A stretch of 16,129 nt of DNA from Archangiaceae bacterium (lineage in GTDB: Bacteria; Myxococcota; Myxococcia; Myxococcales; Myxococcaceae). This document shows positions 1 to 14,992 of the stretch, piece by piece. The notes beneath the pieces were generated by a model that saw only the letters and a program-made list of their open reading frames with translations, did not search any database and was not told the origin of the DNA. Each line of letters starts with the position of its first letter. Position 1 is the stretch's first letter. Where the stretch lies: positions 1 to 16,129 of the forward strand of contig JAYVCD010000296.1 of the NCBI GenBank assembly GCA_043750125.1, read 5' to 3'. Made by a program: the position numbers and the translations under genes.

Positions 1-543
1 TTCCACCACCGCCTCGAGCGCGCGCGCCAGGTAGTGCAGCACCGACAGGTCAGCCCGAATCTGTTCTCCGATTCCCGGCCGCTGCACTTTGACCACCACC
101 TCTTTTCCATCGAGGGTGACCGCGCGGTGGACCTGCGCAATCGATGCGGCCGCGATGGGAACCGGGTCAAAAGTCGGGAACAGCTCTTCGAGGGGCCGGT
201 GAAACGCGTCCGTAATCTGCTGCCGCACCTGCTCGATCGGAAACGGCGGAACCTGGTCCTGCAGCGTCGCCAGTTCTTCGATGAACTGCGCCGGGAGCAG
301 GTCCGCTCGGGTCGACAACACCTGCCCCAGCTTGATGAACGTCGGCCCCAATTCGCTGAGCACCATCCGGAACCGGCGAGCGACCGACTCGGCCCGCGAT
401 TCCGCAGTCTGCTCGGTGATCTCTTTGCGGCCCAGGCGCGCCCACAGGCCCGAACGCTCGAGCACATCGGCAAAACCGTGACGCCCCGCGATCACGGCGA
501 TTTGTCGTACGCGGTTCAGGTCCTGAAAGGCCTCACGGATCAC
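1..543 (-). CDS. ubiB: AarF/ABC1/UbiB family atypical kinase, N-terminal part (runs off the left edge)
   Basis: Manual translation from GTG at 543: [24 protein letters not shown]...[21 protein letters not shown]...[12 protein letters not shown]...[13 protein letters not shown]...VVVKVQRPG. It has the KxGQ motif, the A-rich loop (AAASIAQV) and the VxVK lysine of ABC1 kinases. An in-frame TGA at 556-558 limits the start. Confidence 0.93.
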
Positions 544-642
544 AGCCGCAAACTGTCACGAGCTTGGGACCCGGGCAATTTGTAGACGTTGCAGGCCCGC
601 CCGCACCCGCTCAGGGCACGCGGGATGCAACTTTGTCGCCCC

Positions 643-3138
643 ATGCGAGTCGTTCACGGGCTGGCGGTGCTGCTGTCGATTGCATTTTCGTCCCAGGCGC
701 GCGGGGAACCGCCCAACCCGAATTGCCTTGCCGGGGACCCGTTCAGCTGTCTGGAAGGCGAGCCCTCGCTTTCCGCAGCCACCCGGGCCTGCGATCTGGG
801 GCAACCCGTGGGCTGCCGAATCGCCGGCGCGCAATGGATCAATGCCAAACCCGACAAGCCGGCCCTCGCGCTGCGGCTGTTCGACAAAGCATGTGAGCAG
901 GGCGATTCGATTGGCTGCTACCAGAGTGGCCAATTGCTCAGCGATGAGGGCAGCGCAATCGGAGACGTACCGCGGGCCTTTGTCGTCCTCTACCGAAGTT
1001 GCCGCCAGGGCTATGGCCCCGCGTGCACCCTGGTGGGGGCCCTGCACGCAGACGGAGTCGGACACCCGAAAGATTTCACCCGGGCTGCGATTGCGTACCG
1101 AAACGGCTGCGAACGAAGAGACCCGCGCGGCTGCATTCTGCTGGGGCGGCTGCTGGTCCGGCCGGCCGACGCCGCCGCCGCCTATCATCAGGCGTGTCAG
1201 CTCGAGAACGCAGAAGGCTGCGTGCAGCTCGAGCTGATGAAAAAGAAGGGCATCGTTCCCTCGGCCACCCTCACGCCGCTGCTGGACCCGATGGTGGAAG
1301 CCGAGCGGGCCTCGCGCAACAAGCCGGGGGGCCGCAATGCCCTGCCTTTTACCGAAGTCCGAGATTGTGCGCAGAGAACCCTCGAGCCCGCGTGTGTCCG
1401 TGGCGATCTCGCGGTCTGCCAGCAGAGCGCAGATCTTCAGCAGAACGGCGGCGACGGCGCGGCCGCCTACTGCATGCGGCGGCAGGCGTGCGAGCGCGGC
1501 GACGGCTTTGCCTGTGAACAGCTGGGGCTGGCGAGCGAGGCGGGCCAGCTGCCCAGCTCTCTGGAAGTCGCCCAGGGTTGGTATGAGAAAGGCTGCCTGG
1601 GCGGCAGCGCCCCGTCCTGCGCGAGTGCCGTTCGTCTGATCGATAAGGTGGATCCTTGGGCCACGGCCAACCAGCGGGCGACCCGGAAGCTGGCGTTGAC
1701 CCTGCGCGGCTGCGCCCTGGACAGCGCGGGGGACTGCCTGGTCGTCTACCAACGGCTGCTCACGAAGATCCCCGACCCCGTCCTCGCCCACCGCGCGTGG
1801 ATCACTTTGGGCCGGTGGTGCGAGAAGGATCCGCGCGAAGGTCCGGCCTGCGCGGTGGTCGAAGACCGGCGCAAAGCCCTGGTCCTCGAGCGCGACTGCC
1901 ATGCGGGCAAGGCGGTGGCGTGTCGCGAAGCGGCGCCCTTGAATCCGGATCCTTCGAGAGCGAGCGCGTTGTTGGGCCAAGCGTGCGCATTGGGAGACTG
2001 CCAGAGCTGCCTGGGCAGAAAAGCTGGGGAAGCAGTCCCGGTGGCCGAGGTCCTCGCCAACCAACGGAAGGCGGCCGAAGTCTGCCCGGCCGAATGCAGG
2101 GCCGCCGCGGTCCAGGACATCGAGCCCAAAGCGTGCGGGTACGCGGTGCGGGCCCTCGCGCAGCTCGGAGGACCGAAGAACGAACGCAGGGCGATTGGCT
2201 TTGCCGAAGAGCAATGCAAGCGCGGCTTCACCTGCGAGCTGTTGGCCGAGCTGTTCGTCGTCACCGAGACACTGGCTGCCGATGATGAAAAACGCGTGGG
2301 AGCCTTGCTCGACCGCGCGTGCGCCAACCACCGGGCCGGCACCTGTCAGGCCCACGCCGAGCTCGCCTTGATTCGTCCGGCCCGCGCGCTGTGCAGGCGC
2401 GGCGAGGTCGAGGGCTGCCTGAAGCTCGCAGACCAGCTGAAGCTGTCCGCCGTCGAATTCCCGCAGGTCAGCGTGGCGTGGGAACGCGCCTGCAAGCTCG
2501 GCTCGAACCTCGGCTGCGTTCGGCACTGGGCCAGCCTGGGCAGCGCGCTGTCCCGCGACTCGACAGCCGTCGAGGAATCTCACCGCAAAGCCGCCGACGC
2601 CTGCCAGGCGGGCGAGCTGCAGATCTGCATCGAGCTGGCAAACCATCTCAAGTTTAGATCTTCGGACCCACAGGCGCTGGCCGAGCTGAAGGAAGTCGCA
2701 GAGAGGGCAGTGACCGCCCTTCGGATTCAGTGTGATCGCGCGGACAGCGACGCGTGCGAGACAGCGTTCAATTTCCTTCAGTTCAAAAAAGAGCTCGACG
2801 GCCCCACCCGGGCCAAAGAGTTTCTGCGCAAAGCGTGCGAGCACGGCGCCGGAACCCGGTGCGTCGAGCTGGCAGAGCAGTGCGTGCGAAGCAAGGACCC
2901 CACCGGCGCCGCCCAATACGAAGTCAAAGCCTGCACCCATGGCAGTTCAGCGGGGTGTCGAATGCTGCTGGAACAGCGCAACACTTTGGCCAGCGATCTC
3001 CGGGAAGAGGCCGACCGGGCGCTCGGTGCGGCCTGTGGAAAAGGCGCGCTCGACGCCTGCGAGCTCGCCGCCGACGCTGGAATCGCGCAGCGCCCCCCGG
3101 TTTCAGCAGCCCCGCCCGGCCCGCTGAGCGCCAACTGA
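643..3138 (+). CDS. Secreted cysteine-rich Sel1-like repeat protein (Hcp-type, about 831 aa)
   Basis: ATG 643 gives a signal-peptide-like N-terminus (MRVVHGLAVLLSIAFSSQARG); ATG 625 is an alternative. By hand I count about 51 Cys and about 20 C-x7-C units such as KACEQGDSIGC, RSCRQGYGPAC and RACKLGSNLGC. One Sel1-style GVGHPKDFTRA segment is present. Confidence 0.85.
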   Translation: MRVVHGLAVLLSIAFSSQARGEPPNPNCLAGDPFSCLEGEPSLSAATRACDLGQPVGCRIAGAQWINAKPDKPALALRLFDKACEQGDSIGCYQSGQLLSDEGSAIGDVPRAFVVLYRSCRQGYGPACTLVGALHADGVGHPKDFTRAAIAYRNGCERRDPRGCILLGRLLVRPADAAAAYHQACQLENAEGCVQLELMKKKGIVPSATLTPLLDPMVEAERASRNKPGGRNALPFTEVRDCAQRTLEPACVRGDLAVCQQSADLQQNGGDGAAAYCMRRQACERGDGFACEQLGLASEAGQLPSSLEVAQGWYEKGCLGGSAPSCASAVRLIDKVDPWATANQRATRKLALTLRGCALDSAGDCLVVYQRLLTKIPDPVLAHRAWITLGRWCEKDPREGPACAVVEDRRKALVLERDCHAGKAVACREAAPLNPDPSRASALLGQACALGDCQSCLGRKAGEAVPVAEVLANQRKAAEVCPAECRAAAVQDIEPKACGYAVRALAQLGGPKNERRAIGFAEEQCKRGFTCELLAELFVVTETLAADDEKRVGALLDRACANHRAGTCQAHAELALIRPARALCRRGEVEGCLKLADQLKLSAVEFPQVSVAWERACKLGSNLGCVRHWASLGSALSRDSTAVEESHRKAADACQAGELQICIELANHLKFRSSDPQALAELKEVAERAVTALRIQCDRADSDACETAFNFLQFKKELDGPTRAKEFLRKACEHGAGTRCVELAEQCVRSKDPTGAAQYEVKACTHGSSAGCRMLLEQRNTLASDLREEADRALGAACGKGALDACELAADAGIAQRPPVSAAPPGPLSAN

Positions 3139-3143
3139 AAAAT

Positions 3144-3992
3144 TCAAGTTAACAGGTTGGGCAGGTGCTTCTCGCCACGTGAGGCGGCCGAGATGATCGC
3201 CGCCAGCTGATCGAGCCCATCGGTGAGACATGCGGGGCCGGGCTGCAAGATGAGCGGGCTCTTGATTTCGTACAGCTGGTTGTTCGTCACAGCCGAGACT
3301 TCGCGCCACCCGGGCCGGGCGAGGATCTTCTCGCGCTTGACCTTCCGGCCACACCAGCTGCCAATCACCACCTGCGGGTCTCGCCGGGCGATCTCTTCGG
3401 ACTCGAAGATCCGGCCCCGCGCTCCTTGCTGGGTCCGGGTCTCCAGACAGATGTCCTGTCCTCCGGCGAGTTCGACCAGCTCAGAGCACCAGCGAATTCC
3501 GCTGATCAACGGCTCATGCCATTCTTCGAAGAACACGCGCGGCCGCTGGGGAAGCGCGCTGGCCTTGTCGGCCACCTCTTCGACGTGGGCCAACAGCTCG
3601 GCGGCCAACGCTTCGCCCGCTTCGGCTCGCCCCACCAGCGCGCAGGTCGCTCGCACCGTCTGAAGAATCTCTGCCACCGAGCGCTGGTTGAAGAGCACCA
3701 CCGGGACTCCGCGGCGCGCCAGCTCTGCGCCGAGCTCGGCCTGAAGGTCCGAGAAGCCGACCACCACATCGGGCTTCAGCTCGAGGATCTGATCGAAGTT
3801 GGCGTCGAGAAAGCTCGAGACCCGGGGCTTCTTGCGGGCCTCGGGCGGGCGAACGGTGAAGCCGCTGACCCCGACGATCAGATCCTGAGCGCCGATGCGG
3901 TACAGGGTTTCGGTCGTCTCTTCGGTCAGACACACCACCCGCCGGGGGTAGCGGGGAGCGTGGGCAAGCAGGGCGCGAAGCGAGGTCGACAT
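3144..3992 (-). CDS. BtuF-like / helical-backbone metal-receptor family protein (cobalamin or Fe-complex binding fold), no signal peptide
   Basis: Motifs PRRVVCLTEETTETLY, IVGVSGFTVRPPEA, ILELKPDVV, RPRVFFEEWHEP, ELVELAGG, RDPQVVIGSWCG and ILQPGP match class III substrate-binding proteins. The N-terminus has no hydrophobic core. Confidence 0.82.
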   Translation of the reverse strand: MSTSLRALLAHAPRYPRRVVCLTEETTETLYRIGAQDLIVGVSGFTVRPPEARKKPRVSSFLDANFDQILELKPDVVVGFSDLQAELGAELARRGVPVVLFNQRSVAEILQTVRATCALVGRAEAGEALAAELLAHVEEVADKASALPQRPRVFFEEWHEPLISGIRWCSELVELAGGQDICLETRTQQGARGRIFESEEIARRDPQVVIGSWCGRKVKREKILARPGWREVSAVTNNQLYEIKSPLILQPGPACLTDGLDQLAAIISAASRGEKHLPNLLT

Positions 3993-4002
3993 GGCGCGCT
4001 CT

Positions 4003-5151
4003 TCAGGGTTGGGAGGCGCCCTCGTACGTGATCGACGCCTGAGACATCACGTACTCCACCGCCAGCAGGTGCCAGGCGGTCTGCGCCATCTGGGCGGTCA
4101 GCTGCTTCGACTCGCGCAGGCCTTTCTTCACCTCGTCCGCGCTCAAACCGAAAGGCTCCGCCGAGATCGTCGCCAGCTCTTCCAGCTTTTCCGGGGTCAG
4201 CTGCAGCTTGTCGCGTTCCGTAATTGCTTTGAGCACCAAAGCAATCTTCAGTCGTCGTTCGGCATCGGTCCGGGTGAGCGGGTCAGTCAGCCACGAATCG
4301 AGGGCTTCTTGCTGTTCGGTCGAATCGAAGCCGCGCTCGACCAGCGCCTTCCCCTCGAGCTGACCCCAACGCCTTCGGACCTCTTCGTCGATCAGTGCCT
4401 GGGGAACCTGAACTTCCGACCGTTCGACCAGCGCGTCGAGCACCAGGTCCTGCCCTTCCAGAGTCAGGATGTCGGTCAGCTCGTCTTCGAGCTCTTCTCG
4501 AATCGCGTTCATCACCGCATCGAGGCTCTTGCCCTTGTTCATCGCCTTGAGGAACGCGGGCGCCTCGTCGTCGGGCTCGGTCACCTCGCGGGCGGCGCGA
4601 ATGTCGACGATGAACCGGGCCGGTTTCCCGCGCAGCGCCTCGACCGGGTAGTCGTCAGGAATCTTGAGCTCGATTTCCAGGCTGTCGCCGACCTTCTCGC
4701 CCGCGATCGCTTCGCTGAAGCCGGGCAGGGTGGCCTGGGGAGCCAGCTCGAGCCACAGGCTGAACCGCGCTGAAAAGGGAATCAGCTTTCCTTCGCAGTA
4801 GCCCAGGGTGTCGAGCTGCACGTCATCACCCAGCGCGACCGCTTCACCGGCCGCGCGATCTCGAGTCTTGGCGTGGGTGCGCTTGAGCTCGTGAAAGCGG
4901 CGCAGCAGATCGTCCTGAGTCAGGTCCGCCGGCATCGGCACGGTGACCTTCAGGTCGTCGGTAGAGGGCGCCCGGACCTTCGGGAGGTCCACGGGCGTGA
5001 CTGCCAACGCGTCAGCCATCGGCCCCATCTTCAACAGGTAGGGCAGGCCTTTGGGCTTCGAAGACGGCTTCTTGCTCTTGGTCACGGTGTCTCCAGGGAC
5101 GAAGCCCGCCGCGCCGAAATCCCAAACAGGGTTGTACCGGCGGGTGCTCAC
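4003..5151 (-). CDS. Trigger factor paralogue (linker + FKBP-type PPIase + C-terminal chaperone domain) lacking the canonical N-terminal ribosome-binding domain
   Basis: Colinear with trigger factor from the linker onward: LKVTVP..DLTQDDL..FHELKRTHA, GDDVQLDTLG, LPGFSEAIAG.KVGD, IPDDYPVEALRGKPARF, LDALVERSEVQVPQALIDEE, AERRLKIALVLKAITERDKL. Only about 55 aa precede the linker. GTG start with AGGA about 7 nt upstream. Confidence 0.88.
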   Translation of the reverse strand: MSTRRYNPVWDFGAAGFVPGDTVTKSKKPSSKPKGLPYLLKMGPMADALAVTPVDLPKVRAPSTDDLKVTVPMPADLTQDDLLRRFHELKRTHAKTRDRAAGEAVALGDDVQLDTLGYCEGKLIPFSARFSLWLELAPQATLPGFSEAIAGEKVGDSLEIELKIPDDYPVEALRGKPARFIVDIRAAREVTEPDDEAPAFLKAMNKGKSLDAVMNAIREELEDELTDILTLEGQDLVLDALVERSEVQVPQALIDEEVRRRWGQLEGKALVERGFDSTEQQEALDSWLTDPLTRTDAERRLKIALVLKAITERDKLQLTPEKLEELATISAEPFGLSADEVKKGLRESKQLTAQMAQTAWHLLAVEYVMSQASITYEGASQP

Positions 5152-5171
5152 CGCCGATTCCTACCAGAGGT

Positions 5172-6143
5172 TCAGAAGAACGACCCGATGAAACCAGAGA
5201 CTGCGGAAACCCCGGCTCCGATCTGGCTGACGATCGGGATGTTGGTCGCGGCGGCAATCGACCCAACGGCGGTGATCACGCTGCAGACCTTCTTCCCGGT
5301 CGAAGCCTTGGGATCCATCACAGTCGCGACTGCGTTGGCGGTGTCGAATGCAGCGATCGCGATGTTCAGACCCGGAACGAAGCGGGCGCCTGCCTTGCCC
5401 AGCGTTCCTGCGGCGGCCTTGGCCCCGGCCTTCAGCGCGGCCTCTCCTGCTGCCTTCCCGCCTTCGCGCAGTGCTGCCCGCGAAGCGGCGCGACCGGCCG
5501 AGCCCGCGATCGAGGTGGCCAGCGTTCCGGCTTCCTTGGCTGCGAGGTGGGCGGCCTGGGTCGCGGCGCTCTTCACCGCTGTCTTGGCAGCGCCTTCGAA
5601 CGTGCCGACCATCGCGGCCTTCGCCGCTGCGGCGGTGACCCGCTTGCTCGCGCCCGGAACTGCGAGCTCGAACGCGCTCTTCGCGGCCTTATAGGTGCTG
5701 GTGAGCTTGTTGACGGCGATCGCGCTGGTGAGCGCGGACTTGGCGGTGAAGGCTCCGACTTTGGCCGCATCGAAGGACGACCACGCCGCGTGGGTGATGT
5801 CGCTGAGCGAGCCGGTGCGAACCGCCTGGCGAATGTCGGTGATCGCCGTGCCCACTTTGCCCGGGAACGTCGCCAGACCGGTGACGACCCCCAGCGCCCC
5901 GTCCGCGACCTTCAGCTTGCCCAGCAGGTTGAGCTTGCCGGTTGGATCCTGAGCCAGCTGCGCTGCGGTCTTGCCCGCGTGGTTCCAGGCGCCTTTGAAG
6001 CCCTTCTCGCCGACGTGCCTGGCTGCGTCAAAGCCATCGGTGACCGCCTTCTTCGCGACCAGCACGGTCTTCACCGCTTTCTTGGTGGTGTAGACGATGC
6101 TCTTGAACGGGTTGGCGAACTTTTTGCCGATTGAGAAATTCAT
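5172..6143 (-). CDS. Hypothetical Ala/Gly/Lys-rich amphipathic helical protein with hydrophobic C-terminal hairpin (candidate membrane-active secreted protein)
   Basis: 323 aa ORF with strong GC3 bias, ATG start and GAGG at 6156-6153. Roughly a quarter of residues are Ala and the protein is net basic. C-terminus: GARFVPGLNIAIAAFD...VITAVGSIAAATNIPIVSQIGAGVSAVSGFIGSFF. No Sec signal. Confidence 0.85.
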   Translation of the reverse strand: MNFSIGKKFANPFKSIVYTTKKAVKTVLVAKKAVTDGFDAARHVGEKGFKGAWNHAGKTAAQLAQDPTGKLNLLGKLKVADGALGVVTGLATFPGKVGTAITDIRQAVRTGSLSDITHAAWSSFDAAKVGAFTAKSALTSAIAVNKLTSTYKAAKSAFELAVPGASKRVTAAAAKAAMVGTFEGAAKTAVKSAATQAAHLAAKEAGTLATSIAGSAGRAASRAALREGGKAAGEAALKAGAKAAAGTLGKAGARFVPGLNIAIAAFDTANAVATVMDPKASTGKKVCSVITAVGSIAAATNIPIVSQIGAGVSAVSGFIGSFF

Positions 6144-6188
6144 GAAAGCGGGCCTCGCAAAAAAAGAAAAACAGCAGGACTGCTGAAG

Positions 6189-6215
6189 TTATCGGCTTAC
6201 TTCGGGTTTTGGTTC
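6189..6215 (-). promoter_or_regulatory. Putative sigma-28 (FliA/WhiG-type) promoter for the 6143-3144 gene run
   Basis: The minus strand at 6196-6189 reads GCCGATAA, an exact match to the sigma-28 -10 consensus, 45 nt upstream of ATG 6143. The -35 position (N15 upstream) reads GAAC, a poor match to TAAA. Confidence 0.55.
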
Positions 6216-6230
6216 TTCCTGACCAAAATC
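6205..6230. promoter_or_regulatory. Palindrome TTTTGGT-N8-ACCAAAA in the divergent intergenic region (possible regulator site)
   Basis: TTTTGGT at 6207-6213 and ACCAAAA at 6222-6228, with an outer G6205/C6230 pair. AT-rich in a GC-rich background. Confidence 0.4.
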
Positions 6231-6262
6231 AACATGTCAGCCCTGTCCGGTAGGGTCGAAAC

Positions 6263-7495
6263 GTGGCCGGCCTGACACTGTTACATGCAGCTGATTTACA
6301 TTTGGGCAGCCCTTTCCGGGGAATTGCGGCCCAGGGCGACCTGGCGCGGGTCTTCGCCGATTGCACCTTCGACGCCTTCACCCGGCTGGTGGACCTGGCG
6401 ATCATCCAGAAAGTCGACGGAGTCCTCCTCGCCGGGGACCTCTTCGATCAGAAAGATCGCTCGCTGCGGGCCCGCCTGCATCTGAAGGAACAGCTTCAGC
6501 GGCTCCACTCCTCGGCGATTCCCTCATTCCTGGTCCACGGGAACCATGATCCGATTGAAGGGGACCCCGGTGGCCTGGCCTTGCCTTCTTCGGTCACGGT
6601 CTTCGGGGCGAGCCTCGCCGAGGTCGAGCTGCCCGGCTATTGCGTTCAGGGAATCAGCTTTCCCACCGCCGAGGTCAAAGAGAACCTCTCGGCTTGTTTT
6701 GGTAGGCGGTCTGCCAAGCCGACCGTCGGGCTTCTCCACTGCAACCTGGGGGGGCAGGCCGGTCACTCGGACTATGCGCCCTGCTCGCTGCAGGATCTCG
6801 AACGGGCGGGTCTCGACTACTGGGCGCTGGGCCATGTTCACACCCGTTCGCAGCACCGTCTGGCGGGCAACGGCCTGGCCGCCTACCCCGGAAACCTTCA
6901 GGGTCGACACGTCAACGAAACGGGCGAACGCGGCGCGTTGTTGGTCACCCTCGATTCCACCCGGGAAGCCGCCCCCACCACCCGCTTCGTGGCCCTCGAC
7001 ACCGTCCGCTGGCACCGGGTCGAAGTGGCGATCGACGAGCTCGAGTCTCTCGATGATCTGATTCACCTTTGCCACTCGGCCATCGCCCGTGCAGTCGGCG
7101 CAATTGCTTCGATCGTCCGGCTCCAGCTGACCGGCCGGGGCCCGCTCCATGCGTCTTTCGAATCGGCGGAAAAGCTCTTCGAGCTCGAGGCCGCCATCCG
7201 GTCGCGCCTTCAAGGTGAGGTCTTGCTCGAGTCCCTGCGCGATGAGACCGGTTCGAGCTGGGAGCTCGAGCGGCTGATCGCTTCGGGAGGCCTGGTGTCC
7301 GAAGTGGCGCTCCAGCTTCGCCAGCCGCCCGCGAATGAACAGCTGGGGCGCCTGTGGGCGATGGCCGGGCTCGAAGCGCTCGACGCGGCGCTGCTCGAAG
7401 CCGGCCTGAATCCGTTGAAGGGACAGGCGGCCGCGCTCCACCACCAGGCGGCGACCCGCGCGGTCGACCTGCTCGAGGGGGATTCATCGCCGTGA
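6263..7495 (+). CDS. yhaO: Mre11/SbcD-family metallophosphoesterase (YhaO-like DNA repair exonuclease)
   Basis: All five phosphoesterase motifs are present: LLHAADLHLG, LAGDLFD, HGNHD, LLHCN and WALGHVH, plus YPGNLQGRHVNETGERG. GTG start with AGGG upstream. Confidence 0.92.
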   Translation: MAGLTLLHAADLHLGSPFRGIAAQGDLARVFADCTFDAFTRLVDLAIIQKVDGVLLAGDLFDQKDRSLRARLHLKEQLQRLHSSAIPSFLVHGNHDPIEGDPGGLALPSSVTVFGASLAEVELPGYCVQGISFPTAEVKENLSACFGRRSAKPTVGLLHCNLGGQAGHSDYAPCSLQDLERAGLDYWALGHVHTRSQHRLAGNGLAAYPGNLQGRHVNETGERGALLVTLDSTREAAPTTRFVALDTVRWHRVEVAIDELESLDDLIHLCHSAIARAVGAIASIVRLQLTGRGPLHASFESAEKLFELEAAIRSRLQGEVLLESLRDETGSSWELERLIASGGLVSEVALQLRQPPANEQLGRLWAMAGLEALDAALLEAGLNPLKGQAAALHHQAATRAVDLLEGDSSP

Positions 7496-10400
7496 AGCCC
7501 GCTCGACTCAGCTTTGATCAGTTGCAAATCGACGGCTTTGGACACTTTCACGAGTTCAAGGTCGAGCTCGCCCCGGGGCTCAACGTTCTCTACGGCGCCA
7601 ACGGGGTCGGCAAGTCGACGTTGATGGCGTTCGTCCGTTCGGTGCTCTTTGGCTTCGCCCGTCGCAACACCGCCGAGCGCTACCAGACCCAGGGGGGCAA
7701 GGCGTTCGGCGGTCGGGTGTTGCTCTCGACCCCCCACGGAGAGCTGTGGGTCCAGCGCCTCGATGGCAAGCGGGCCGAAGGCGAGCTGAGCGTGAAGAAC
7801 GGAGTGATGGCCGCCGTGCCAGAGTCGCGGCTTCGAGAAGCCCTCGCCAGCGTGGACAAAGAGCTGTTCGAGCAGGTGTTTGCCTTCGGCGTCGATGAGC
7901 TGCGCTCGTGGGGCCAGCTGATGGATGCCGGCAAAGTCAAAGACGCGCTCGCGGCGGCCTCGATGCAGGGCGCGCTGCGGCTGCCCCAGGCGCTCGAGAG
8001 GTTCGACGCCGAAGCGCGCGGCCTGTGGGGAAAGCAGGCAACCACCCGGCCGCTCAACGTCGTCATCAACGAGCTGGCGCAGGTTCGGGCCCGGCGTCTG
8101 CAACTGGGAAACCGGCCCAGGGAATACTTCGCCACCTGTGCCCAGCTCGAGGCGACCGGGTCTGAAGCGGAGCAACTGCAGCAGGCTCTCGAGCAGGCCT
8201 CGCGCGACGAGTTCCTGCTCGAACGGCTGCGCGAGGCCGCCCCCCACGTCGAACGGGCCGTCGAAGCCGCCGCCCAGCTGGCGGCGTTGCCCAAGGTCGA
8301 CTCCTTTCCTCAAGACGGGTTGGTCCGGCTCGATGAGGCCCAACTGGCGCAGCACACCGCGGGGGCTGCCCACGCGCGGGCCGCCGCCAACGCGCAGACC
8401 CTCACCCATCAGCTCGAGCAGCTCACGCAGACTCTCGCCTCTCTTGCCTCCCAGGCTCCGGTCTGTGCCGCACTCGATTCATGGCGGCAGGTCGCATCGC
8501 TCGACGCGGACCTCGATGAGCGGCGCGCCAGCTGGGTCCAACGGCAGCTTCGGGCCACCGAGCAGGTACAGCGGCTGGGCCTGCCCCAGACCCTCGAGGC
8601 CATCGACGCTTCGGTCGCGGCGCGCGCCTGTCTCACTGCACTGCGCGCGCGCTGCGGCCAGGCCCTCGAAAGGTCGACCCGGGCTCGCGACGCGCTGCGC
8701 CTTTCAACCGGCCGGCGCGAAGACGCGCAGCGAGAACTGCTCGGGCTCGAGGCCGAGCTGGGCCTGCTGGGCGGCGCGACGGTCGGCAATCCCGATGCGG
8801 CCCTGGAAGCCGCGCGCGGCCTTTCGAACGTCGAGCATCAATGCCGGGGAATCGAGGCACAGCTCGAAGATCGGCAAACGGCGCTCGCGGCGGCCGCGGT
8901 CCCCGACGAGCCTGCGCCCGCAGAACGTTGGCCGCTGACGTGGGTCGCGGCGATCAGCTGCGGCGTCATCGGGTGCCTTGCCCTCGCTTTCGCGCTCGCC
9001 GGCCCCGGGCCTGCGGCGGTGGCTGGGCTGTTCGGGTTGGGGTTCATCGCGGTGCTTTGGATCCTGCGCCACAAAGACCAGCAGCACAGGCGCTCAGCGC
9101 GAAGCGCGCACGAGGCGGTGGTGGGTCATCGGCACGCGCATCGCGAACGGCTCACCGCCGAAGCGCAGCTGGCCCGCACCCGCCTCTGCGCGCTTCAGCA
9201 ACAAGCGCACAGCCTGCGGGAAGCGGCGGGCCTGGATCCCGATGGGGCGCTGGGGCCCCGTCTGGTCGCGCTCGAACGCCTCGTCGGGGCGGCCCATCGG
9301 CGATCCGACCTGGTGCGAGATGCGGCGGTCGCGCGGTCGCGGCAACTCTCGGCACTCGAAGATGAGTCCCACGCCCATTCAACGCTGAATCAGGCCCTGG
9401 CCGATGATGAGGTTGAGCGCGCTGCGCTCGCCCTGCAGCTCAATCGGCTCGGGCTGCCCGACAGCCTCGAGCCCTCGGGAGCGTTGGAATTGTTGGCCGA
9501 GGTCGTTCTGGCCCAGAGCGCCGCCTCGGTCCTCGCCGACCAGTCCGCCGCGCTCGATCGCGACGCCCATCGCGTTGCTCAAGCCTCCGATGCGCTCAAG
9601 CTTGCGGCCCGCACCGCCTGCGTCTCTGGTTCGACCGCCGCCGAGCAGGTCGCCGGCCTGGCCGCCTGGCTTCAGGCCGCCCGCGCTGTGCAGGCCGACG
9701 CCGCAGCCAGCGCGTCGCGGCTCGACGATGCGTCGGTCTGCCTGGCTGAGGCAAAGGCCGACCAGGCGCAGGCGCAGCAGCGGGTCGAAGCCCTGCTCGC
9801 AGACGCGCACGCCGATTCGGTCGAGAATTTCCGCAGGCTTGGAGCCGCGTTCGCAACCGGTCAGCAGCTCGCCACCGAAGCCCGACATGCCGACGCCCGG
9901 GTGAAAGTCGCCAGCGGGCTGGCCGTCGAGGCCGCCCACGCCCAGCTGCTCCAGGCTCCGGGGCTCGAAGCCCGACTCGAAGCAGCTCGGCATCGCCGGC
10001 TCGAACTCGAAGGGCAACGCCGTCACCTCCACGAGCAGCGCGGCGCGCTGACCCAACAGCTCGCCGCCTGGGAAACCGACGCCCAGCTGGGCCAGCTGCT
10101 GCAGCAGGAACAGGCGCTCACCGCCCGGGCCGAGCAGCTGGCTGCGCAGTTCGCGGTCGCGCGCATGGGGCAGGCAGTGCTGGCTCAGGCGCGCGAAAAA
10201 TTTGAGGCCGAGCATCAACCGCAGGTAGTGCTTCGCGCCGCGCAGCTGTTCAATTTGCTGACCGACGGGAAGTACCCCCGGCTGACCCTGGACGCAGGCA
10301 ACGCCGGGCTTCGGACCCTCGATAGCCAGGGGCGAAGCTTCAGCGTCGAGCAGCTGTCCCGCGGAACCCGAGAGCAGCTGCTGACCTCGCTGCGGCTGGC

Positions 10401-10638
10401 GATGATCGAGGACTTTGGCCGCGAAAGGCTGGCACTGCCGGTGATGGTGGACGACGTGCTGGTCAACTGTGATCCCGCCCGTGCCCAGCGCATGGTCGAA
10501 GCGCTCTGCGAGTTGGCTACCCGCCATCAGGTCCTGGCGTTCACCTGTCATCCTGCGACCCGGGAGCTGTTCAAGCAGTACGGGGCGAAGGCCATCGAAG
10601 TGAGCACCCGGGCGCAGCTGGCGTTGCTCCCGACGTAA
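7492..10638 (+). CDS. yhaN: YhaN-like (AAA_27) SMC/Rad50-type coiled-coil ATPase with central transmembrane hairpin, about 1048 aa
   Basis: The likely start is GTG 7492, overlapping the upstream stop (GTGA), with GAGGGGG upstream. Motifs: IDGFGHF, Walker A GANGVGKST, signature LSRGTREQL, Walker B VMVDDVLVNCD and H-switch FTCH. Long coiled coils; two hydrophobic segments at 8941-9066. Confidence 0.9.
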   Translation: MKPARLSFDQLQIDGFGHFHEFKVELAPGLNVLYGANGVGKSTLMAFVRSVLFGFARRNTAERYQTQGGKAFGGRVLLSTPHGELWVQRLDGKRAEGELSVKNGVMAAVPESRLREALASVDKELFEQVFAFGVDELRSWGQLMDAGKVKDALAAASMQGALRLPQALERFDAEARGLWGKQATTRPLNVVINELAQVRARRLQLGNRPREYFATCAQLEATGSEAEQLQQALEQASRDEFLLERLREAAPHVERAVEAAAQLAALPKVDSFPQDGLVRLDEAQLAQHTAGAAHARAAANAQTLTHQLEQLTQTLASLASQAPVCAALDSWRQVASLDADLDERRASWVQRQLRATEQVQRLGLPQTLEAIDASVAARACLTALRARCGQALERSTRARDALRLSTGRREDAQRELLGLEAELGLLGGATVGNPDAALEAARGLSNVEHQCRGIEAQLEDRQTALAAAAVPDEPAPAERWPLTWVAAISCGVIGCLALAFALAGPGPAAVAGLFGLGFIAVLWILRHKDQQHRRSARSAHEAVVGHRHAHRERLTAEAQLARTRLCALQQQAHSLREAAGLDPDGALGPRLVALERLVGAAHRRSDLVRDAAVARSRQLSALEDESHAHSTLNQALADDEVERAALALQLNRLGLPDSLEPSGALELLAEVVLAQSAASVLADQSAALDRDAHRVAQASDALKLAARTACVSGSTAAEQVAGLAAWLQAARAVQADAAASASRLDDASVCLAEAKADQAQAQQRVEALLADAHADSVENFRRLGAAFATGQQLATEARHADARVKVASGLAVEAAHAQLLQAPGLEARLEAARHRRLELEGQRRHLHEQRGALTQQLAAWETDAQLGQLLQQEQALTARAEQLAAQFAVARMGQAVLAQAREKFEAEHQPQVVLRAAQLFNLLTDGKYPRLTLDAGNAGLRTLDSQGRSFSVEQLSRGTREQLLTSLRLAMIEDFGRERLALPVMVDDVLVNCDPARAQRMVEALCELATRHQVLAFTCHPATRELFKQYGAKAIEVSTRAQLALLPT

Positions 10639-10663
10639 TGACTCTGGCAGTGGGGGGGTGGTA

Positions 10664-13459
10664 ATGCAGATCGAACCCGTGGCGAGCATTCCGCAGATTG
10701 AAGTCCCAGCCCCCTGGCTGAAGATCCCGCTCGATGACGGTGGCGTTCCCGCGTTGCCGGTCGCAGAGCCCGCCGAAGCGACGGCGATCGTGCTCACCCC
10801 GATGATGAAGCAGTACCTCGAGGTGAAGGCGCAGGTGCCCGGGGCCATCTTGTTTTTCAGGCTGGGCGACTTCTACGAGATGTTCTTCGAGGACGCGGTG
10901 AAGGCCTCCGCGCTGCTCAACATCACGCTGACCGCTCGCAGCAAAGGTGCCGACAAGGTTCCGATGTGCGGCGTCCCTCATCATTCAGCCCGCCGCTACA
11001 TCGCCCGCCTGGTCAATTTCGGCTGCAAGGTGGCGATCTGCGAGCAGGTCGAAGAAGCCGGCGGTCCCGGCATTGTTCGCCGAGAAGTGGTGCGGGTCGT
11101 CAGCCCGGGCATGGTGCTCGACGACGACGTGCTCGAGGCGACCGAGAATAACTTTCTTGCCGCGATCAAGCCGCCTTCCGATGACGCAGACGCCTGGGGC
11201 GCCGTGCTGCTCGACGCCTCGACCGGAGAATTTCTCGCGCTCGCTCCCGCGTCGCTCGAAGTGTTGGGTGACGAGCTCAGCCGGGCGAAAGTGCGTGAGG
11301 TGCTGGCGCCCGAAGGGTCGTTGGGGGCCCGGCTCGACCCCCTGCTCGAGCTGCTCAGCACACGGCCCGCGCTCGCAACATTGCCTCCCGATGCGTTCGA
11401 CGTTCGGCGAGGCGAAGCGCAGCTGAAGGCCCATTTTCAGGTCGCCTCACTTGACGGCTTTGGCCTCGATTCGAAGAGCCCTTCGGTCGGAGCAGCCGGC
11501 GCGGCGCTGCGCTACCTCAAAGAGACTCAGAAGACTCCCGCTGCGCACGTCGACCGGATCTCGGTGCTCGCGCGCGGGACCCAGTTGGTGCTCGATGAGT
11601 CCTGCCGAACCCACCTCGAGCTGCACAAGACGATGAAAGACGGCGCCCGCGCCGGCTCATTGCTGGGAGTGATGGATCAGACGTCGACGGCCGCCGGCGC
11701 ACGGAAGTTGAGCCGGTGGATCGCCGCTCCGCTGGCCCAGGTCGCGGCCATCGACGCGCGGCTCGACGCGGTTGCGCTGCTGGTGGGCAAGGCGGTGTGG
11801 CGCGAAGAGCTCGCCGCGCTGCTCAAAGAGGTCGCCGATGTCGAACGGCTGTGCGGGCGACTGTCGCTCGCCTCGGGCACACCGCGCGACCTCAAAGGGC
11901 TGGGCCGAAGCCTGGTCGCATTGGGCCGGTTGGGCGCTGCTCTCGACCAGCCCCCCACCGCAGTGCCGCAGCTGCTCAAGTCGTTGGCCGGACCGCTGAT
12001 GAGTGAGCAGCTCGCGACGCTGGGCGCGACCCTCGAGGCGGCGGTGATCGACGAACCCGGGGCGGTGGTCGCCGACGGTGGCTTCATTCGCTCAGGCTAT
12101 GACAGCGACCTCGACGGCTGCGTGGCGCTCGCCACCTCTGGAAAGGACTACCTCGCGAAGCTCGAGGCCCGAGAACGAACCCGCACCGGCATTGGCAGTC
12201 TGAAGGTCCGCTTCAATCGGGTCTTCGGCTACTACCTCGAGGTCACCAAGGCGAACCTCCACCTGGTCCCCAAAGAGTGGACCCGCAAGCAGACGATGGT
12301 CGGCGGTGAACGGTACGCGACCGACGAGCTGCGCGAATACGAAGAGAAGGTGCTCTCGGCCGACGAAAAGCGAATCGCGCTCGAACAGAGGTTGTTCGAG
12401 CAGCTGCGTGCCCTGGTGATCGCCCGCGCCTTTGCGCTGCGGGCGGCCGCCGATGCCGCCGCCACGCTCGATGTCCTGATTTCCTTCTCGCGGGTCTCGG
12501 CGGCCGGCAGGTACGTGCGGCCGACGGTCGACGACAGCCAGGTGCTCCAAATCGAAGGCGGCCGGCACCCGGTCGTCGAGAAGTCGCTGCAGTCGGGTGA
12601 GGTGTTCGTTCCCAACGACATTCGGCTCGATCGCGAAGAGGCGCAGGTGCTGATCATCACCGGCCCCAACATGGCGGGCAAGAGCACGGTGATGCGCCAG
12701 GTGGCGCTGACGGTGGTGATGGCGCAGTCCGGCTGCTTTGTGCCTGCCCGCACCGCCCGCATCGGCCTGTGCGATCGGGTCTTCACCCGGGTGGGAGCCA
12801 GCGACAACCTGGCGCGCGGTCAATCGACCTTCATGGTCGAGATGACCGAGACCGCGCACATTCTTCATCACGCCACCCGGAGCAGCCTGGTGGTGCTCGA
12901 CGAAATCGGTCGCGGGACCTCGACCTTCGATGGGCTGTCGATCGCGTGGGCGGTCGCCGAGCAGTTGCACGATCGCGTCGGAGCCCGAACTTTGTTTGCC
13001 ACCCACTACCATGAGCTGACCGACCTCGCCCGCGAGCGGCCCCGAGTGAAAAACTGCTCGATAGCGGTGCGCGAAGTCGGAGGGCGGGTGCTGTTCTTGC
13101 GCAAGCTCGTCTCGGGCAGCGCGAGCAAGAGCTATGGCATCGAGGTCGCCCGGCTGGCGGGGTTGCCTCCCGAGGTCGTGGCCCGGGCGCGTGAGCTGCT
13201 GCACAACCTCGAGGCCTCTGAGCTCGACGAGACGGGGCACCCCCGGCTGGCACGGAAGGCCACTGTGGCGCCGGCCGAACCGACCGCCCGCGTCGATCGC
13301 TCTCAGCTGGGGTTGTTCGGCCCGGTGAGCCCGGTGGTCAGTGGCCCCAACGAAGCGGTGCTCCGAGCCCTGGAAGAATTTTCAACCGACGCGTCAAGCC
13401 CCCTCGAGGCACTCAATGCCATCGCCCGCTGGAAGGCGGCGCTGGCGAAGAAGAGCTAG
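10664..13459 (+). CDS. mutS: DNA mismatch repair protein MutS (MutS1)
   Basis: TPMMKQYLEVK, FFRLGDFYEMF (mismatch-binding Phe-x-Glu), TGPNMAGKST, GQSTFMVEM, DEIGRGTSTFDG, FATHYHEL, SYGIEVARLAG and a C-terminal clamp motif QLGLF (13304-13318). ATG 10664 is preferred over GTG 10658 because the G-rich RBS lies at 10652-10658. Confidence 0.98.
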   Translation: MQIEPVASIPQIEVPAPWLKIPLDDGGVPALPVAEPAEATAIVLTPMMKQYLEVKAQVPGAILFFRLGDFYEMFFEDAVKASALLNITLTARSKGADKVPMCGVPHHSARRYIARLVNFGCKVAICEQVEEAGGPGIVRREVVRVVSPGMVLDDDVLEATENNFLAAIKPPSDDADAWGAVLLDASTGEFLALAPASLEVLGDELSRAKVREVLAPEGSLGARLDPLLELLSTRPALATLPPDAFDVRRGEAQLKAHFQVASLDGFGLDSKSPSVGAAGAALRYLKETQKTPAAHVDRISVLARGTQLVLDESCRTHLELHKTMKDGARAGSLLGVMDQTSTAAGARKLSRWIAAPLAQVAAIDARLDAVALLVGKAVWREELAALLKEVADVERLCGRLSLASGTPRDLKGLGRSLVALGRLGAALDQPPTAVPQLLKSLAGPLMSEQLATLGATLEAAVIDEPGAVVADGGFIRSGYDSDLDGCVALATSGKDYLAKLEARERTRTGIGSLKVRFNRVFGYYLEVTKANLHLVPKEWTRKQTMVGGERYATDELREYEEKVLSADEKRIALEQRLFEQLRALVIARAFALRAAADAAATLDVLISFSRVSAAGRYVRPTVDDSQVLQIEGGRHPVVEKSLQSGEVFVPNDIRLDREEAQVLIITGPNMAGKSTVMRQVALTVVMAQSGCFVPARTARIGLCDRVFTRVGASDNLARGQSTFMVEMTETAHILHHATRSSLVVLDEIGRGTSTFDGLSIAWAVAEQLHDRVGARTLFATHYHELTDLARERPRVKNCSIAVREVGGRVLFLRKLVSGSASKSYGIEVARLAGLPPEVVARARELLHNLEASELDETGHPRLARKATVAPAEPTARVDRSQLGLFGPVSPVVSGPNEAVLRALEEFSTDASSPLEALNAIARWKAALAKKS

Positions 13460-13474
13460 GTTTTCGTCGACAGC

Positions 13475-14217
13475 ATGCGGCTGGCTGTTCCCAACGTCCC
13501 TCGCACCGTTTCGCTGCGGCAGGTGCCCGGGGGGCGTCCTGCTGGTGGCAGGGGGGGGCGCTGATCAGCAATCGCGCCGGCGGGTGGCTGTCGAACGAGC
13601 GGCAATTTTTGATCGATGCGGTCGAGGTGTCCGGGCAGATCACCCGGGTGGCGCTTCCGGCCCTCGAGGACCGCGAGGGAACGGCGGCCCGGCTGTCTGT
13701 CCTCTACGCCTGGCCGGAAGGCTTTTCCCGTTCCGCCGCCGGGGTTGCCACCTCGGGGCTGTTCGCCGAAGGCCTCGGGGCCGGAGCCAGCGTCCCGCTC
13801 CTTGTCGACCCCCGGGATCCCGAGCACCCGCGCGAAGCGGGCTACGTGCGCGATCGCGAAGGACTGCACCGCTTCGTTCCCCTGGGTCTGGGCCTGGGGA
13901 TGCTGCTCGCGCTGGGGTTGTTCGGCTTCGAATTCAAGCGCGCGGTGAGACGTGAGCTCGACCCGCTGCGCAGCGGAATTCTGGTCTGGCTGACTCCCGA
14001 TGAGCCGCTTCCCCAGACGAAGAGCGAGGGAAGTTTCGCCGCCAGCTGCTATCGGCAAGACGTGAAGGTTTCGGTGCGCGCGCGCGCGCGTCCGGGCCGA
14101 GCGCCGGTGCGCAACGGCGAGAAGGTGCTCGCCGTGGTGGTGCCCAGTCAGCCCACCTGGGCGCGCGTCATTGACGAAGATCTGGCCCATGCTCTGGGCT
14201 GGTTCATCAACTCGTGA
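13475..14217 (+). pseudogene. Membrane protein (DUF3592-like) with the 5' end frameshifted at two poly-G tracts
   Basis: ATG 13475, 15 nt after the mutS stop, gives MRLAVPNVPRTVSLRQVPGG and stops at 13562-13564. The hydrophobic GVLLVAGG follows in another frame, and the main body (ALISNRAGGWL...VPLLVDPRDPEHPR...LGLGLGMLLALGLFGF...GWFINS) is in the third frame. The shifts coincide with G6 (13529-13534) and G8 (13551-13558). The DUF3592 label comes from the TM - small beta domain ending VDPxDP - TM layout. Confidence 0.65.
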
Positions 14218-14236: not shown

Positions 14237-14992
14237 CTAGAGGTGAACGAAACAGTCGACGGCCACCACGCCCAGGGCTTCGGTGAGCGTGAGCCGGTTG
14301 CCGCGCAGCTTTGCGGCCGCCGCGACGTACGGCTTCTTGTCGGCGCTGGTCTCTTCGTCCGGCAACACCACGGCCATCTGCCGCAGTTTCAGATCCCGGG
14401 GGGTAGCGACCACCAGCAGCCCCGACTTCGCCTGCAAGTGCGCATCGTCCACCGAGGCCCGAATCCACCCGCGCATCGGGCCTTCGTGCCTGAGCCAATC
14501 GACCGTCTGGCCCAGCGAGAGCTCTTTGGCTCCAACGAAGTGAGGAATCTCGCAGTTCATCGCGCGGCTCACGTCCCAAACGAAGATGTAGACGTCGCGG
14601 TTGTTGAGCTCCTTGGCCGGGCTCTCGCCGTCGTACGTCACGCCAATCGCGGTCAGCTCGTCATCGTCGTCGGCAAAAAGCCGCGTCGACGTCTTGCCGA
14701 GCAAACGTGCCCGCGCCGCTTTGCTCTCGGCTTCGCGTGCACCTTGAAAAGCAGAGCTCAGCTGCGCTTTCTGAAATTCAGTAGGCTGGCGCGGCGCCGA
14801 TGTTCCTGATCCGGACGCAAAGCCCGGGCGGCTGGCCGTGCACGGCAGGGGCCGGGCCGTCGGGGTGGGGGCGCTCGCAGCAGAATGAATTCCGGTCGAG
14901 GTCTTCTTCGTTCCAGCGCTGTCGAGGTCGAGCCCCTGTCCCTTGCCCGTGCTGTTTTCGCGCTCTGGCATGCGGAACCGAATTGTAGGCAT
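14237..14992 (-). CDS. Hypothetical protein: low-complexity N-terminus plus C-terminal domain resembling an inactive CHAP/NlpC-P60-like fold
   Basis: Start is ATG 14992 (MPTIRF) or ATG 14971; the longer 15178 start would overlap the amidase gene. The C-terminal domain reads RDVYIFVWDVSRAMNCEIPHFV..ELSLGQTVDWLRHEG..RGW..LLVVA..RQMAVVLP...CFVHL. Confidence 0.7.
   Translation of the reverse strand: MPTIRFRMPERENSTGKGQGLDLDSAGTKKTSTGIHSAASAPTPTARPLPCTASRPGFASGSGTSAPRQPTEFQKAQLSSAFQGAREAESKAARARLLGKTSTRLFADDDDELTAIGVTYDGESPAKELNNRDVYIFVWDVSRAMNCEIPHFVGAKELSLGQTVDWLRHEGPMRGWIRASVDDAHLQAKSGLLVVATPRDLKLRQMAVVLPDEETSADKKPYVAAAAKLRGNRLTLTEALGVVAVDCFVHL

Follow-up and report, generated by a model that had tools for sequence, protein, structure and literature searches.

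Trigger factor (TF) is the textbook ribosome-bound generalist chaperone. The window analysed here, namely the whole stretch of 16,129 nucleotides (nt) from contig JAYVCD010000296.1 of an Archangiaceae bacterium (assembly GCA_043750125.1), encodes on its reverse strand a TF paralogue devoid of the N-terminal ribosome-binding domain (N-less TF). The gene for this paralogue is directly preceded by a gene encoding a basic protein with a hydrophobic C-terminal tail, designated P1. We report that genes of these two families occur as a near-obligate pair. The features of the window's pair are as follows, pLDDT denoting the predicted local distance difference test of the structural models.

5172 to 6143, reverse strand: P1 gene, encoding a basic, Ala/Gly/Lys-rich, all-helical protein of 323 residues, from a family for which Pfam and NCBIfam contain no model; stop codon at 5172-5174
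5760 to 5867, reverse strand: conserved N-proximal motif of P1 (residues 93-128), with the consensus LPG...TA..D.R.A.R.GS..D...A..S...A.K
5409 to 5723, reverse strand: Ala-rich helical core of P1 (residues 141-245), the confidently modelled part of the protein
5175 to 5384, reverse strand: C-terminal hydrophobic tail of P1 (residues 254-323)
4003 to 5151, reverse strand: TF paralogue gene, with a GTG start, encoding an acidic protein of 382 residues without ribosome-binding N-domain
4987 to 5151, reverse strand: TF residues 1-55, poorly conserved and mostly of low confidence, in place of the ribosome-binding domain
4579 to 4869, reverse strand: FKBP-like head of the TF paralogue (residues ~95-191), divergent, beta-rich in the model
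4048 to 4527, reverse strand: C-terminal substrate-binding (arm) domain of the TF paralogue (residues 209-368), helical, with pLDDT mostly 85-97
5152 to 5171, reverse strand: intergenic spacer of 20 nt, with AGGA (5158-5161) 6 nt before the GTG codon of the TF paralogue
6144 to 6262, reverse strand: region upstream from P1, common to a divergent sbcD-like gene, with GAGG (6153-6156) 9 nt before the ATG codon of P1

The short spacer and its AGGA are consistent with co-transcription of the two genes. A promoter and terminator scan of positions 3000-6500 returned nothing above chance and no sigma-70-like site. In the leader of P1, a GC-containing stem of 5 bp precedes a T-run (6172-6185, reverse strand; about 30 nt upstream from the start codon), a stem-loop that does not exceed chance expectation (2 sites found versus 3.3 expected).

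The TF paralogue has lost the ribosome-docking domain and retained the TF fold and its substrate cradle. The Pfam model of the arm domain (PF05698, Trigger_C) matched residues 209-368 over profile positions 1-160 of 162 (E 1e-19), and the model of complete trigger factors (TIGR00115) was matched from positions 103 to 400 of 410, with a score of 153 bits that lies under the cut-off of 180.2. The protein aligned to residues 73-419 of the 432 residues of Escherichia coli TF (1w26) and to residues 89-379 of Vibrio cholerae TF. The head matched the peptidyl-prolyl isomerase domain of E. coli TF (1l1p, E 1.3e-8), FKBP folds were among the Foldseek matches, and the Pfam family FKBP_C reached just E 0.14. 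An AlphaFold2 model based on 42 relatives (pLDDT 86.5; predicted template modelling score 0.77) had trigger factors 2vrh and 1w26 as its best Foldseek matches in the PDB (E 5e-17). The N-terminal stretch of residues 1-55 showed no alignment consensus and a pLDDT below 50 for residues 5-33, and the first 120 residues contained no GxRxG motif. The paralogue is rich in acidic residues (Asp plus Glu 17.3% versus Lys plus Arg 12.8%; isoelectric point 4.85) and does not adjoin clpP or clpX. A second, complete tig gene is present in the same genome (G000:C278:2-781, 256 bits, with the motif GFRPGKVP) on contig C278, where it is cut by the contig end. A search for fused P1-TF proteins, aimed at relatives of the TF paralogue of 670-2000 residues, returned none at E ≤ 1e-10, an absence that carries little evidential weight; one candidate fusion, P0165, was rejected since it reads like a frameshifted gene call.

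P1 is composed of 23.8% Ala, 10.8% Gly and 9.9% Lys, with an isoelectric point of 10.3 and a net charge of +25. The mean Kyte-Doolittle hydropathy over 19 residues was 0.05 at residue 1 and reached its maximum, 1.67, at residue 287. There is no hydrophobic stretch at the N-terminus, and since only 15 in-frame codons precede the ATG (open frame of 338 residues), a hidden signal peptide is excluded; neither a twin-arginine N-terminus nor a cofactor domain was seen in the translation. In these respects, and in the 20-nt gap that separates P1 from an acidic TF paralogue without ribosome-binding domain, our analysis bore out a preliminary description of the locus made from the sequence alone, which had portrayed P1 as a 323-residue Ala/Gly/Lys-rich, net-basic protein without Sec signal and had called for a separate canonical tig, found here on contig C278.

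The model of P1 was entirely helical (mean pLDDT 64), with a confident block over residues 151-240 (pLDDT mostly 89-95, with a dip to 72-77 at residues 201-220). Hydropathy autocorrelation of the core peaked at lags 4, 7-8 and 11, as for amphipathic helices. A body built of 11-residue repeats was considered and rejected, the period being approximately 3.9-4 and the autocorrelation negative at lag 22. The tail begins with an RF.PG.N motif, followed by a helix, a Lys-rich loop (DPKASTGKK) and a 38-residue hydrophobic segment rich in small residues, which contains an invariant N-I-P kink and ends with FF. The Lys-rich conserved loop, the charged extensions found after the tail in some relatives (see below) and the lack of a signal peptide are arguments that both ends of the hydrophobic element would stay on the cytoplasmic side. 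Together, these three features suggest that the anchor would be a hairpin or a re-entrant, monotopic element and that the basic amphipathic body may lie on a membrane or other lipid surface.

A word-indexed search retrieved 131 relatives of P1, all annotated as hypothetical where a name was given, and the named organisms were Corallococcus, Myxococcus, Pyxidicoccus, Archangium, Stigmatella and unclassified Myxococcaceae or Myxococcales. Conservation is concentrated at the C-terminus. The 13 columns invariant among 72 aligned members (R254, P257, G258, N260, A264, D267, T291, A292, S295, A299, N301, P303 and S306) all fall between residues 254 and 306, within the last 70 residues. An alignment of the tail from 38 diverse sequences contained 16 invariant columns out of 80, with a mean column identity of 70%. 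The 80-residue tail ran without stop or X to the protein end in the 78 loci whose alignment reached the last residue, and the 60 distinct tail sequences all terminated in F, W or L. Searched against 1.84 billion proteins, the tail profile identified 265 representatives at E ≤ 1e-3 and 219 at E ≤ 1e-10, each standing for one 50%-identity cluster. In most of them the tail forms the very end of the chain, and a minority continue beyond it. Among six members inspected, four (P0118, P0192, P0204 and P0223) have an extension made up of exact tandem repeats of 11 residues, in which charged and small residues abound. Exact 11-mers were confined to such extensions, and the P1 of the window has none. 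An 11-residue periodicity is typical of amphipathic helices lying on lipid surfaces or of hendecad coiled coils. The family representatives range from 146 to 642 residues in length, and the N-terminal parts of ten long members contained no Pfam domain. The motif at residues 93-128 is present three times in the 642-residue member P0134, as read by eye. At one locus (L086:4401-6492), two P1-family open reading frames (ORFs) in tandem (4401-5354 and 5431-6492) precede a single TF paralogue.

The preliminary description had proposed a neighbourhood survey of N-less TF paralogues, and this survey revealed a strong linkage. In 74 of the 80 public loci containing a P1 relative, the next gene downstream, in the same orientation, encodes a TF paralogue. 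In four of the other six loci the contig ends no more than 300 nt away; the remaining two are true orphans (L089 and L095). The distance from the stop codon of P1 to the first aligned TF residue had a median of 65 nt and did not exceed 150 nt in 62 of 73 loci.

The reciprocal search started from the TF paralogue. Whole-genome searches identified 44 paralogues, comprising 28 in 61 genomes (that of the window and 60 relatives), 11 in five named genomes and 5 in distant genomes, and 40 of these 44 had a firm P1 match directly upstream. In the 61 genomes, the scores of the TF profile search were bimodal, and paralogues were defined by a score of at least 178 bits. All 28 belonged to the window's own family. 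The other matches did not exceed 124 bits and were mostly full-length frames of ~410-620 residues, with a few short or cut fragments; the full-length ones were read as the canonical tig of each genome. A P1 match was adjacent by coordinates for 23 of the 28 paralogues; among the other five, the P1 profile gave one firm match (E 3.6e-15), one weak match (E 3.6e-6) and three none (G020:C251, G018:C110 and G035:C11). The frame upstream from the paralogue of G020:C251 resembles an aldo-keto reductase by eye. At the third of these sites (locus L118), an ORF located 4 nt upstream from the paralogue (3028-5391, reverse strand) encodes a Pro/Ala-rich low-complexity protein with a glycine-rich hydrophobic segment; this protein might represent another client of a comparable type. 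Conversely, six P1 genes are orphans (L089, L095, G031:C3, G020:C113, G018:C32 and G005:C51), and in genome G005 a canonical tig was the only TF gene detected. In the five complete or named genomes (Myxococcus xanthus AM003, Myxococcus sp. Y35, Corallococcus exercitus, Corallococcus coralloides and Archangium minus), all 11 TF paralogues follow a P1 gene; M. xanthus AM003 harbors three N-less copies in addition to tig, and all three follow a P1-family gene. Overall, 18 of the 36 family genomes encoded P1, as did 2 of the 4 from the window's genus, and the 24 genomes from the eight other families of the order yielded none.

Pairwise distances among P1 sequences and among their TF partners were strongly correlated (r=0.88 for 65 pairs; none of 999 Mantel permutations reached this value), and clusters defined on the two proteins agreed with an adjusted Rand index of 0.61-0.95 depending on the cut. 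Within a single genome, the pair is retained in at least three paralogue groups of old origin. As judged from these sequence comparisons, the two genes have passed through inheritance and duplication together. Common descent is sufficient to produce such a correlation of distances, which by itself does not imply co-adaptation. The median net charges over the 65 pairs were +21 for P1 and -21 for TF, a complementarity that is weak evidence because trigger factors are acidic in general. A prediction of the complex from family alignments scored 0.28 versus a mark of 0.32 and was not used either way. These considerations leave room for the explanation that the genes were duplicated together by historical accident with no functional coupling: linkage alone can generate both the distance correlations and the shared duplications, and orphans exist for both genes. 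We consider this explanation very improbable, given that adjacency, order and strand have been kept while every flanking gene changes, and that the pair persists in at least three paralogue groups and in a lineage whose MutS is 45-49% identical to that of the window.

The latter lineage was revealed by eight P1 loci from records labelled outside the Myxococcota (L089, L090, L093, L096, L103 and L086-L088). Four loci come from three records labelled Vulcanimicrobiota, and the other four carry the labels Enterobacterales (two), Burkholderiales (one) and Selenomonadaceae (one), which were assigned automatically. The MutS identity of 45-49% was obtained for five distant genomes (G066-G070) and compares with 84% for a genome of the same genus and 62-65% for Myxococcus, Corallococcus and Archangium. 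The five distant genomes each encode exactly one TF paralogue (333-397 bits) together with one weaker TF match (52-99 bits, in frames of 490-582 residues), which was read as the canonical tig. The P1 tail domain was encoded directly upstream from the TF paralogue, on the same strand, in all five. The guanine-plus-cytosine content of the distant loci is 56-73%. The occurrence of the pair in this lineage suggests either horizontal transfer or a very old origin followed by deep divergence.

Comparison of the neighbourhoods did not extend the module beyond two genes. All-against-all clustering of the ORFs from 81 regions (the 80 loci and the window) placed TF in 75 regions and P1 in 70, and no third gene was conserved with the pair. 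The other large clusters were alternative-frame shadows of the P1 and TF genes. The largest independent cluster, detected in 23 loci, corresponds to a small membrane ORF in convergent orientation downstream from the pair and is confined to one paralogue group. This hydrophobic ORF of ~133 residues, without Pfam match (e.g. L064:7981-8382, reverse strand), lies directly downstream from the TF paralogue in these 23 loci, occurs only in the group of MXAN_6152/6153 (L054-L076) and is absent from the window. Pfam analysis of flanking genes at 20 sampled positions identified, among others, a GGDEF protein, two Ser/Thr kinases, peptidases, an Ile-tRNA synthetase, a sigma-54 activator, a CAAX protease and an HD protein, whose functions are unrelated; secretion, immunity, phage or transposon genes were not found at these 20 positions. 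The remainder of the window is occupied by the following features.

1 to 543, reverse strand: fragment of an ABC1/UbiB-type kinase, at the window edge
589 to 3138, forward strand: ORF of 849 residues with only a weak Sel1 repeat match
6263 to 7495, forward strand: SbcD/Mre11-like phosphoesterase, part of a DNA-repair block
Within 7354 to 10638, forward strand: SbcC/AAA_27-type ATPase, whose listed start overlaps sbcD and whose true start is probably later
10658 to 13459, forward strand: full-length MutS, part of the DNA-repair block
15061 to 16128, forward strand: fragment of an Amidase_3 (N-acetylmuramoyl-L-alanine amidase), at the window edge

The DNA-repair block (6263-13459, forward strand) is divergent from P1. 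On the other side of the pair, a gene for a BtuF/Peripla_BP_2-type substrate-binding protein (3144-3992, reverse strand) starts 10 nt after the stop codon of the TF paralogue and may be co-transcribed with it in the window. Two further ORFs (13456-14190 and 14237-15178, both on the reverse strand) matched no Pfam family. The BtuF-like protein, the SbcD-like protein and the 849-residue ORF were used as tblastn queries and detected in none of the 80 loci, which ruled them out as parts of the module (sbcC and mutS were not queried).

The architecture of P1 resembles that of colicin channel domains and alpha-pore-forming toxins. One possible explanation is that P1 is an exported effector, i.e. a membrane-active pore former or translocator that would leave the cell by a route other than Sec and kill prey or competitors, the TF paralogue keeping it soluble and harmless inside the producer. 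The lack of a signal peptide, the amphipathic helices and the conserved hydrophobic hairpin of P1 are in line with such a role, as is the distribution of the module, which has the multi-copy and patchy character of an accessory trait (present in 18 of the 36 family genomes and in 2 of the 4 from the genus) and is also found in a distant lineage. The neighbours of the tail in the ESM Atlas included glycine-zipper (0.82) and colicin (0.81) clusters, yet all were below the noise level of the tool: TspB, glycine-zipper, colicin, RTX and MamC clusters at 0.77-0.85 were within noise, and neither the whole P1 nor its tail had any match at 0.9 or above besides its own cluster. Sequence searches with P1 and with the tail alone identified no family in Pfam (even at E ≤ 10, and hence no colicin, toxin or translocator), in NCBIfam or in PADLOC. 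The Foldseek search of the P1 model against the PDB, which is limited by the mean pLDDT of 64, returned no match at E ≤ 0.001 (best E 1.0), and the matches to MakE (E 1.2) and ClyA (E 2.6) were not significant. The surroundings of the pair contain no recurrent secretion, immunity or mobile gene. Moreover, the tail is nearly invariant, polar residues included, across paralogues and lineages, which in our judgement is more readily reconciled with a conserved cellular partner or assembly than with an effector under rapid evolution. Single deletions of N-less TF genes in M. xanthus caused no predation defect, although redundancy could mask one (PMC11559001, in its available portion). Taken together, these observations make an exported effector unlikely, with a small but real probability. 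They also provided no counterpart for two proposals of the preliminary description, namely the likeness of P1 to pore-forming toxins or type III secretion system (T3SS) translocators and a connection of the pair with killing or export machinery.

Information on the function of N-less TFs is available for M. xanthus, and the following statements are limited to the available portion of the article (Wan et al. 2024, PMC11559001). Extra TF copies nearly always lack the N-domain and, within the Myxococcales, multiple copies (up to seven) occur only in the Cystobacterineae (PMC11559001). The products of MXAN_1178, MXAN_1713 and MXAN_6153 do not bind the ribosome; they refold denatured glyceraldehyde-3-phosphate dehydrogenase (GAPDH) and did not prevent its aggregation in vitro (PMC11559001). 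Mutants with single deletions of these genes are viable, grow normally at 30°C and display no predation defect (PMC11559001). Sporulation was reduced to 63% and 56% of the wild-type level by deletion of MXAN_1178 and MXAN_1713, respectively, and the latter deletion also conferred heat sensitivity (PMC11559001). Heat, oxidative and salt stress all induce MXAN_6153, and the mutant lacking it grows less well in the presence of H2O2 or NaCl (PMC11559001). Pull-downs yielded many candidate substrates, mostly distinct for each paralogue and including OmpA and ribosomal proteins, and the authors considered N-less TFs as subfunctionalised general chaperones that share the work of TF and avoid dosage toxicity (PMC11559001). 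Neighbouring or partner genes of the N-less TFs are not mentioned in the text of Wan et al. (2024).

Cluster look-up established that MXAN_6152, which adjoins MXAN_6153, is a member of the P1 family. The P1 cluster of locus L064, which originates from M. xanthus AM003, contains MXAN_6152, although the equivalence of the AM003 and DK1622 loci is deduced; the TF paralogue of the window is 52% identical to the AM003 copy in L064. In the literature, supplements not covered, none of the papers found named MXAN_1177, 1179, 1712, 1714, 6152 or 6154 in its text, and Wan et al. was the only publication found to mention MXAN_6153, 1178 or 1713. Likewise, no description of the P1-TF pairing was found (supplements not covered). 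The preliminary description also knew of no report of the pairing; the TF paralogues themselves have been published (Wan et al. 2024).

The phenotypes of the M. xanthus mutants fit a role in the envelope or the development of the producer. They are also what would be expected if P1 were a self-directed toxin, acting in a holin-like or programmed-death-like manner on the cell's own membrane during developmental lysis or stress, and if the TF paralogue were a sequestering antitoxin: the hydrophobic protein rich in small residues is encoded first and the acidic binder second, and loss of the TF lowers sporulation (63% and 56%) or stress tolerance, as unrestrained toxicity would (PMC11559001, available portion). 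All three single deletion mutants nevertheless grow like the wild type at 30°C (same source). In addition, P1 is not always accompanied by the putative antitoxin, as six P1 genes are orphans and G005 combines P1 with a canonical tig as the only TF detected, and the neighbourhoods in which the pair is passed on, stably and by vertical descent, are of the housekeeping type and show no signatures of mobile elements. We consider a self-directed toxin quite improbable.

Another possibility is that the roles are reversed, P1 being a membrane dock that replaces the ribosome-binding domain and recruits the TF paralogue to chaperone other membrane or secretory proteins. Three observations point in this direction, namely the loss of the docking domain by a TF that has gained an obligate neighbour, the combination of a basic P1 surface with an acidic TF, and the many, mostly distinct candidate substrates recovered with each paralogue (PMC11559001, available portion). 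Against them, a dock would leave unexplained why the body of P1 varies in length and repeat content (146-642 residues) with only the tail being invariant. Reversed roles appear improbable.

The most economical reading is that the TF paralogue is a dedicated holdase for the hydrophobic-tailed protein encoded upstream. Specifically, we propose that the pair consists of a dedicated post-translational holdase and of a membrane-surface protein of the producer cell anchored by a C-terminal hairpin, a proposal to which we give an even chance of being correct. The two genes would form an autonomous, co-inherited operon encoding a client and its private chaperone. P1, with its long basic amphipathic helical body, would be made in the cytoplasm without signal peptide, and its hairpin or re-entrant segment, located at the C-terminus or, in some relatives, near it, would emerge from the ribosome only at termination. 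Since the hydrophobic segment is at the end of the chain, ribosome-bound factors acting co-translationally cannot shield it. The loss of the ribosome-docking domain leaves the TF paralogue free in the cytosol to act after translation, where its substrate cradle, formed by the arms and the FKBP-like head, would capture P1, most likely via the hydrophobic tail, and keep it soluble. The TF paralogue would then hand P1 over to the cell's own inner membrane or to another lipid surface, and P1 would function as a monotopic, cytoplasm-facing surface protein contributing to stress tolerance and development. This proposal keeps the chaperone-client module of the preliminary description, in which TF had been repurposed as a dedicated chaperone or antitoxin of a membrane-active protein before non-Sec export, and abandons the toxin, translocator, antitoxin and export components.

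Several observations weigh against a dedicated holdase for a membrane-surface client. The three N-less TFs of M. xanthus left denatured GAPDH to aggregate in vitro, which one would not predict of a chaperone acting purely as a holdase, even though GAPDH differs from the client proposed here. Either gene can be maintained without the other, as illustrated by the three TF paralogues without P1 match and by the six orphan P1 genes identified above. The tail is more conserved than the TF paralogue (mean column identity of 70% versus 46%), so that TF binding alone cannot explain its conservation. The hydropathy maximum of the tail, 1.67, is borderline, so that membrane insertion is not assured. The stress and sporulation phenotypes of M. 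xanthus fit equally well a harmful client in need of restraint. Finally, the binding of P1 by the TF paralogue, the part of P1 that is bound, the membrane destination, the topology and the role are points that we infer.

The class of N-less TFs and the principle of a dedicated TF were already known, and the client family, its invariant tail and the near-obligate pairing appear to be undescribed. The pattern of pairing suggests that N-less TF copies are kept to serve a specific client, unlike the published explanation based on sharing of general work, and it provides an immediate hypothesis for the stress and sporulation phenotypes reported in M. xanthus. It also draws attention to a family of 265 representatives to which no function has been assigned and whose hydrophobic tail is unusually well conserved. 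A tractable case is thereby offered for the handling by bacteria of membrane segments that emerge after translation, which is poorly understood according to the literature on E. coli tail anchors (PMC6794478, available portion). In a wider perspective, which we think has a small likelihood of being correct, the pair could represent a TF-based form of post-translational targeting, present in Myxococcaceae and in a distant soil and sediment lineage and following a logic similar to that of GET3/TRC40, with the ribosome-free TF paralogue as the dedicated escort of C-terminally anchored, membrane-active proteins; in the boldest version, P1 would be a membrane-permeabilising effector of predation or developmental lysis and the TF paralogue its intracellular safety catch.

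The closest known relatives of the window's TF paralogue are the N-less TFs of Wan et al., which come from the same bacterial family, are likewise devoid of the N-domain and of the GFRxGxxP motif, and coexist with one complete tig. The window pair belongs to a paralogue group different from that of MXAN_6152/6153. Canonical tig products (TIGR00115) share with the window TF the C-terminal arm domain and the fold of the FKBP-like head, which is divergent in the window TF. The window TF differs from them in that it lacks the N-domain and its motif, scores under the cut-off and is not encoded next to clpP or clpX, whereas the complete tig of M. xanthus is part of a tig-clpP-clpX operon (PMC11423568, available portion).

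Another chaperone of TF descent, PceT, is also without ribosome-binding domain. PceT/RdhT is similar to the proposed holdase in being a TF-derived chaperone encoded next to a single dedicated client, which it holds in the cytosol before delivery to the membrane (PMC8905343, available portion). The client of PceT is a cobalamin- and Fe-S-containing enzyme exported by the twin-arginine translocation (Tat) pathway, and PceT binds its N-terminal twin-arginine signal (PMC8905343, available portion). P1, in contrast, lacks both a Tat motif and a cofactor domain, and its hydrophobic element is at the C-terminus, and the two systems involve unrelated taxa and client families.

In its positional logic, P1 resembles tail-anchored proteins, whose hydrophobic segments become accessible to targeting factors only once the chain has been completed (PMC6794478, available portion). 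Targeting relies on GET3/TRC40 in eukaryotes and on the signal recognition particle, DnaK and YidC for DjlC and Flk of E. coli (PMC6794478, available portion). P1 shares with the tail- or hairpin-anchored class the absence of an N-terminal signal and the presence of a hydrophobic element at the extreme C-terminus, which could be shielded only after release from the ribosome, by a cytosolic chaperone. The tail differs from tail anchors in being a marginal hairpin or re-entrant element rather than a single strongly hydrophobic helix, and its targeting is a step that we infer. We know of no TF-type factor in the targeting of tail-anchored proteins.

Dedicated copies of chaperones are known from other systems: SecB-like chaperones operate in toxin-antitoxin-chaperone systems, and Eag proteins shield the transmembrane segments of type VI secretion system (T6SS) effectors. 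The likeness to the P1-TF pair lies in the duplication of a general chaperone fold and in a gene order that ties the copy to one aggregation-prone or hydrophobic client. These systems employ other chaperone folds, and the P1-TF pair has no toxin, antitoxin or T6SS gene beside it. Finally, colicin channels, ClyA, MakE and T3SS translocators, the latter served by class II chaperones, share with P1 an Ala-rich helical organization and a hydrophobic hairpin kept soluble before insertion. P1 has no detectable similarity to these pore formers and translocators, and neither a tetratricopeptide-repeat chaperone nor an immunity or T3SS gene is located nearby; a further distinction is that, within P1, conservation is highest in the hairpin.

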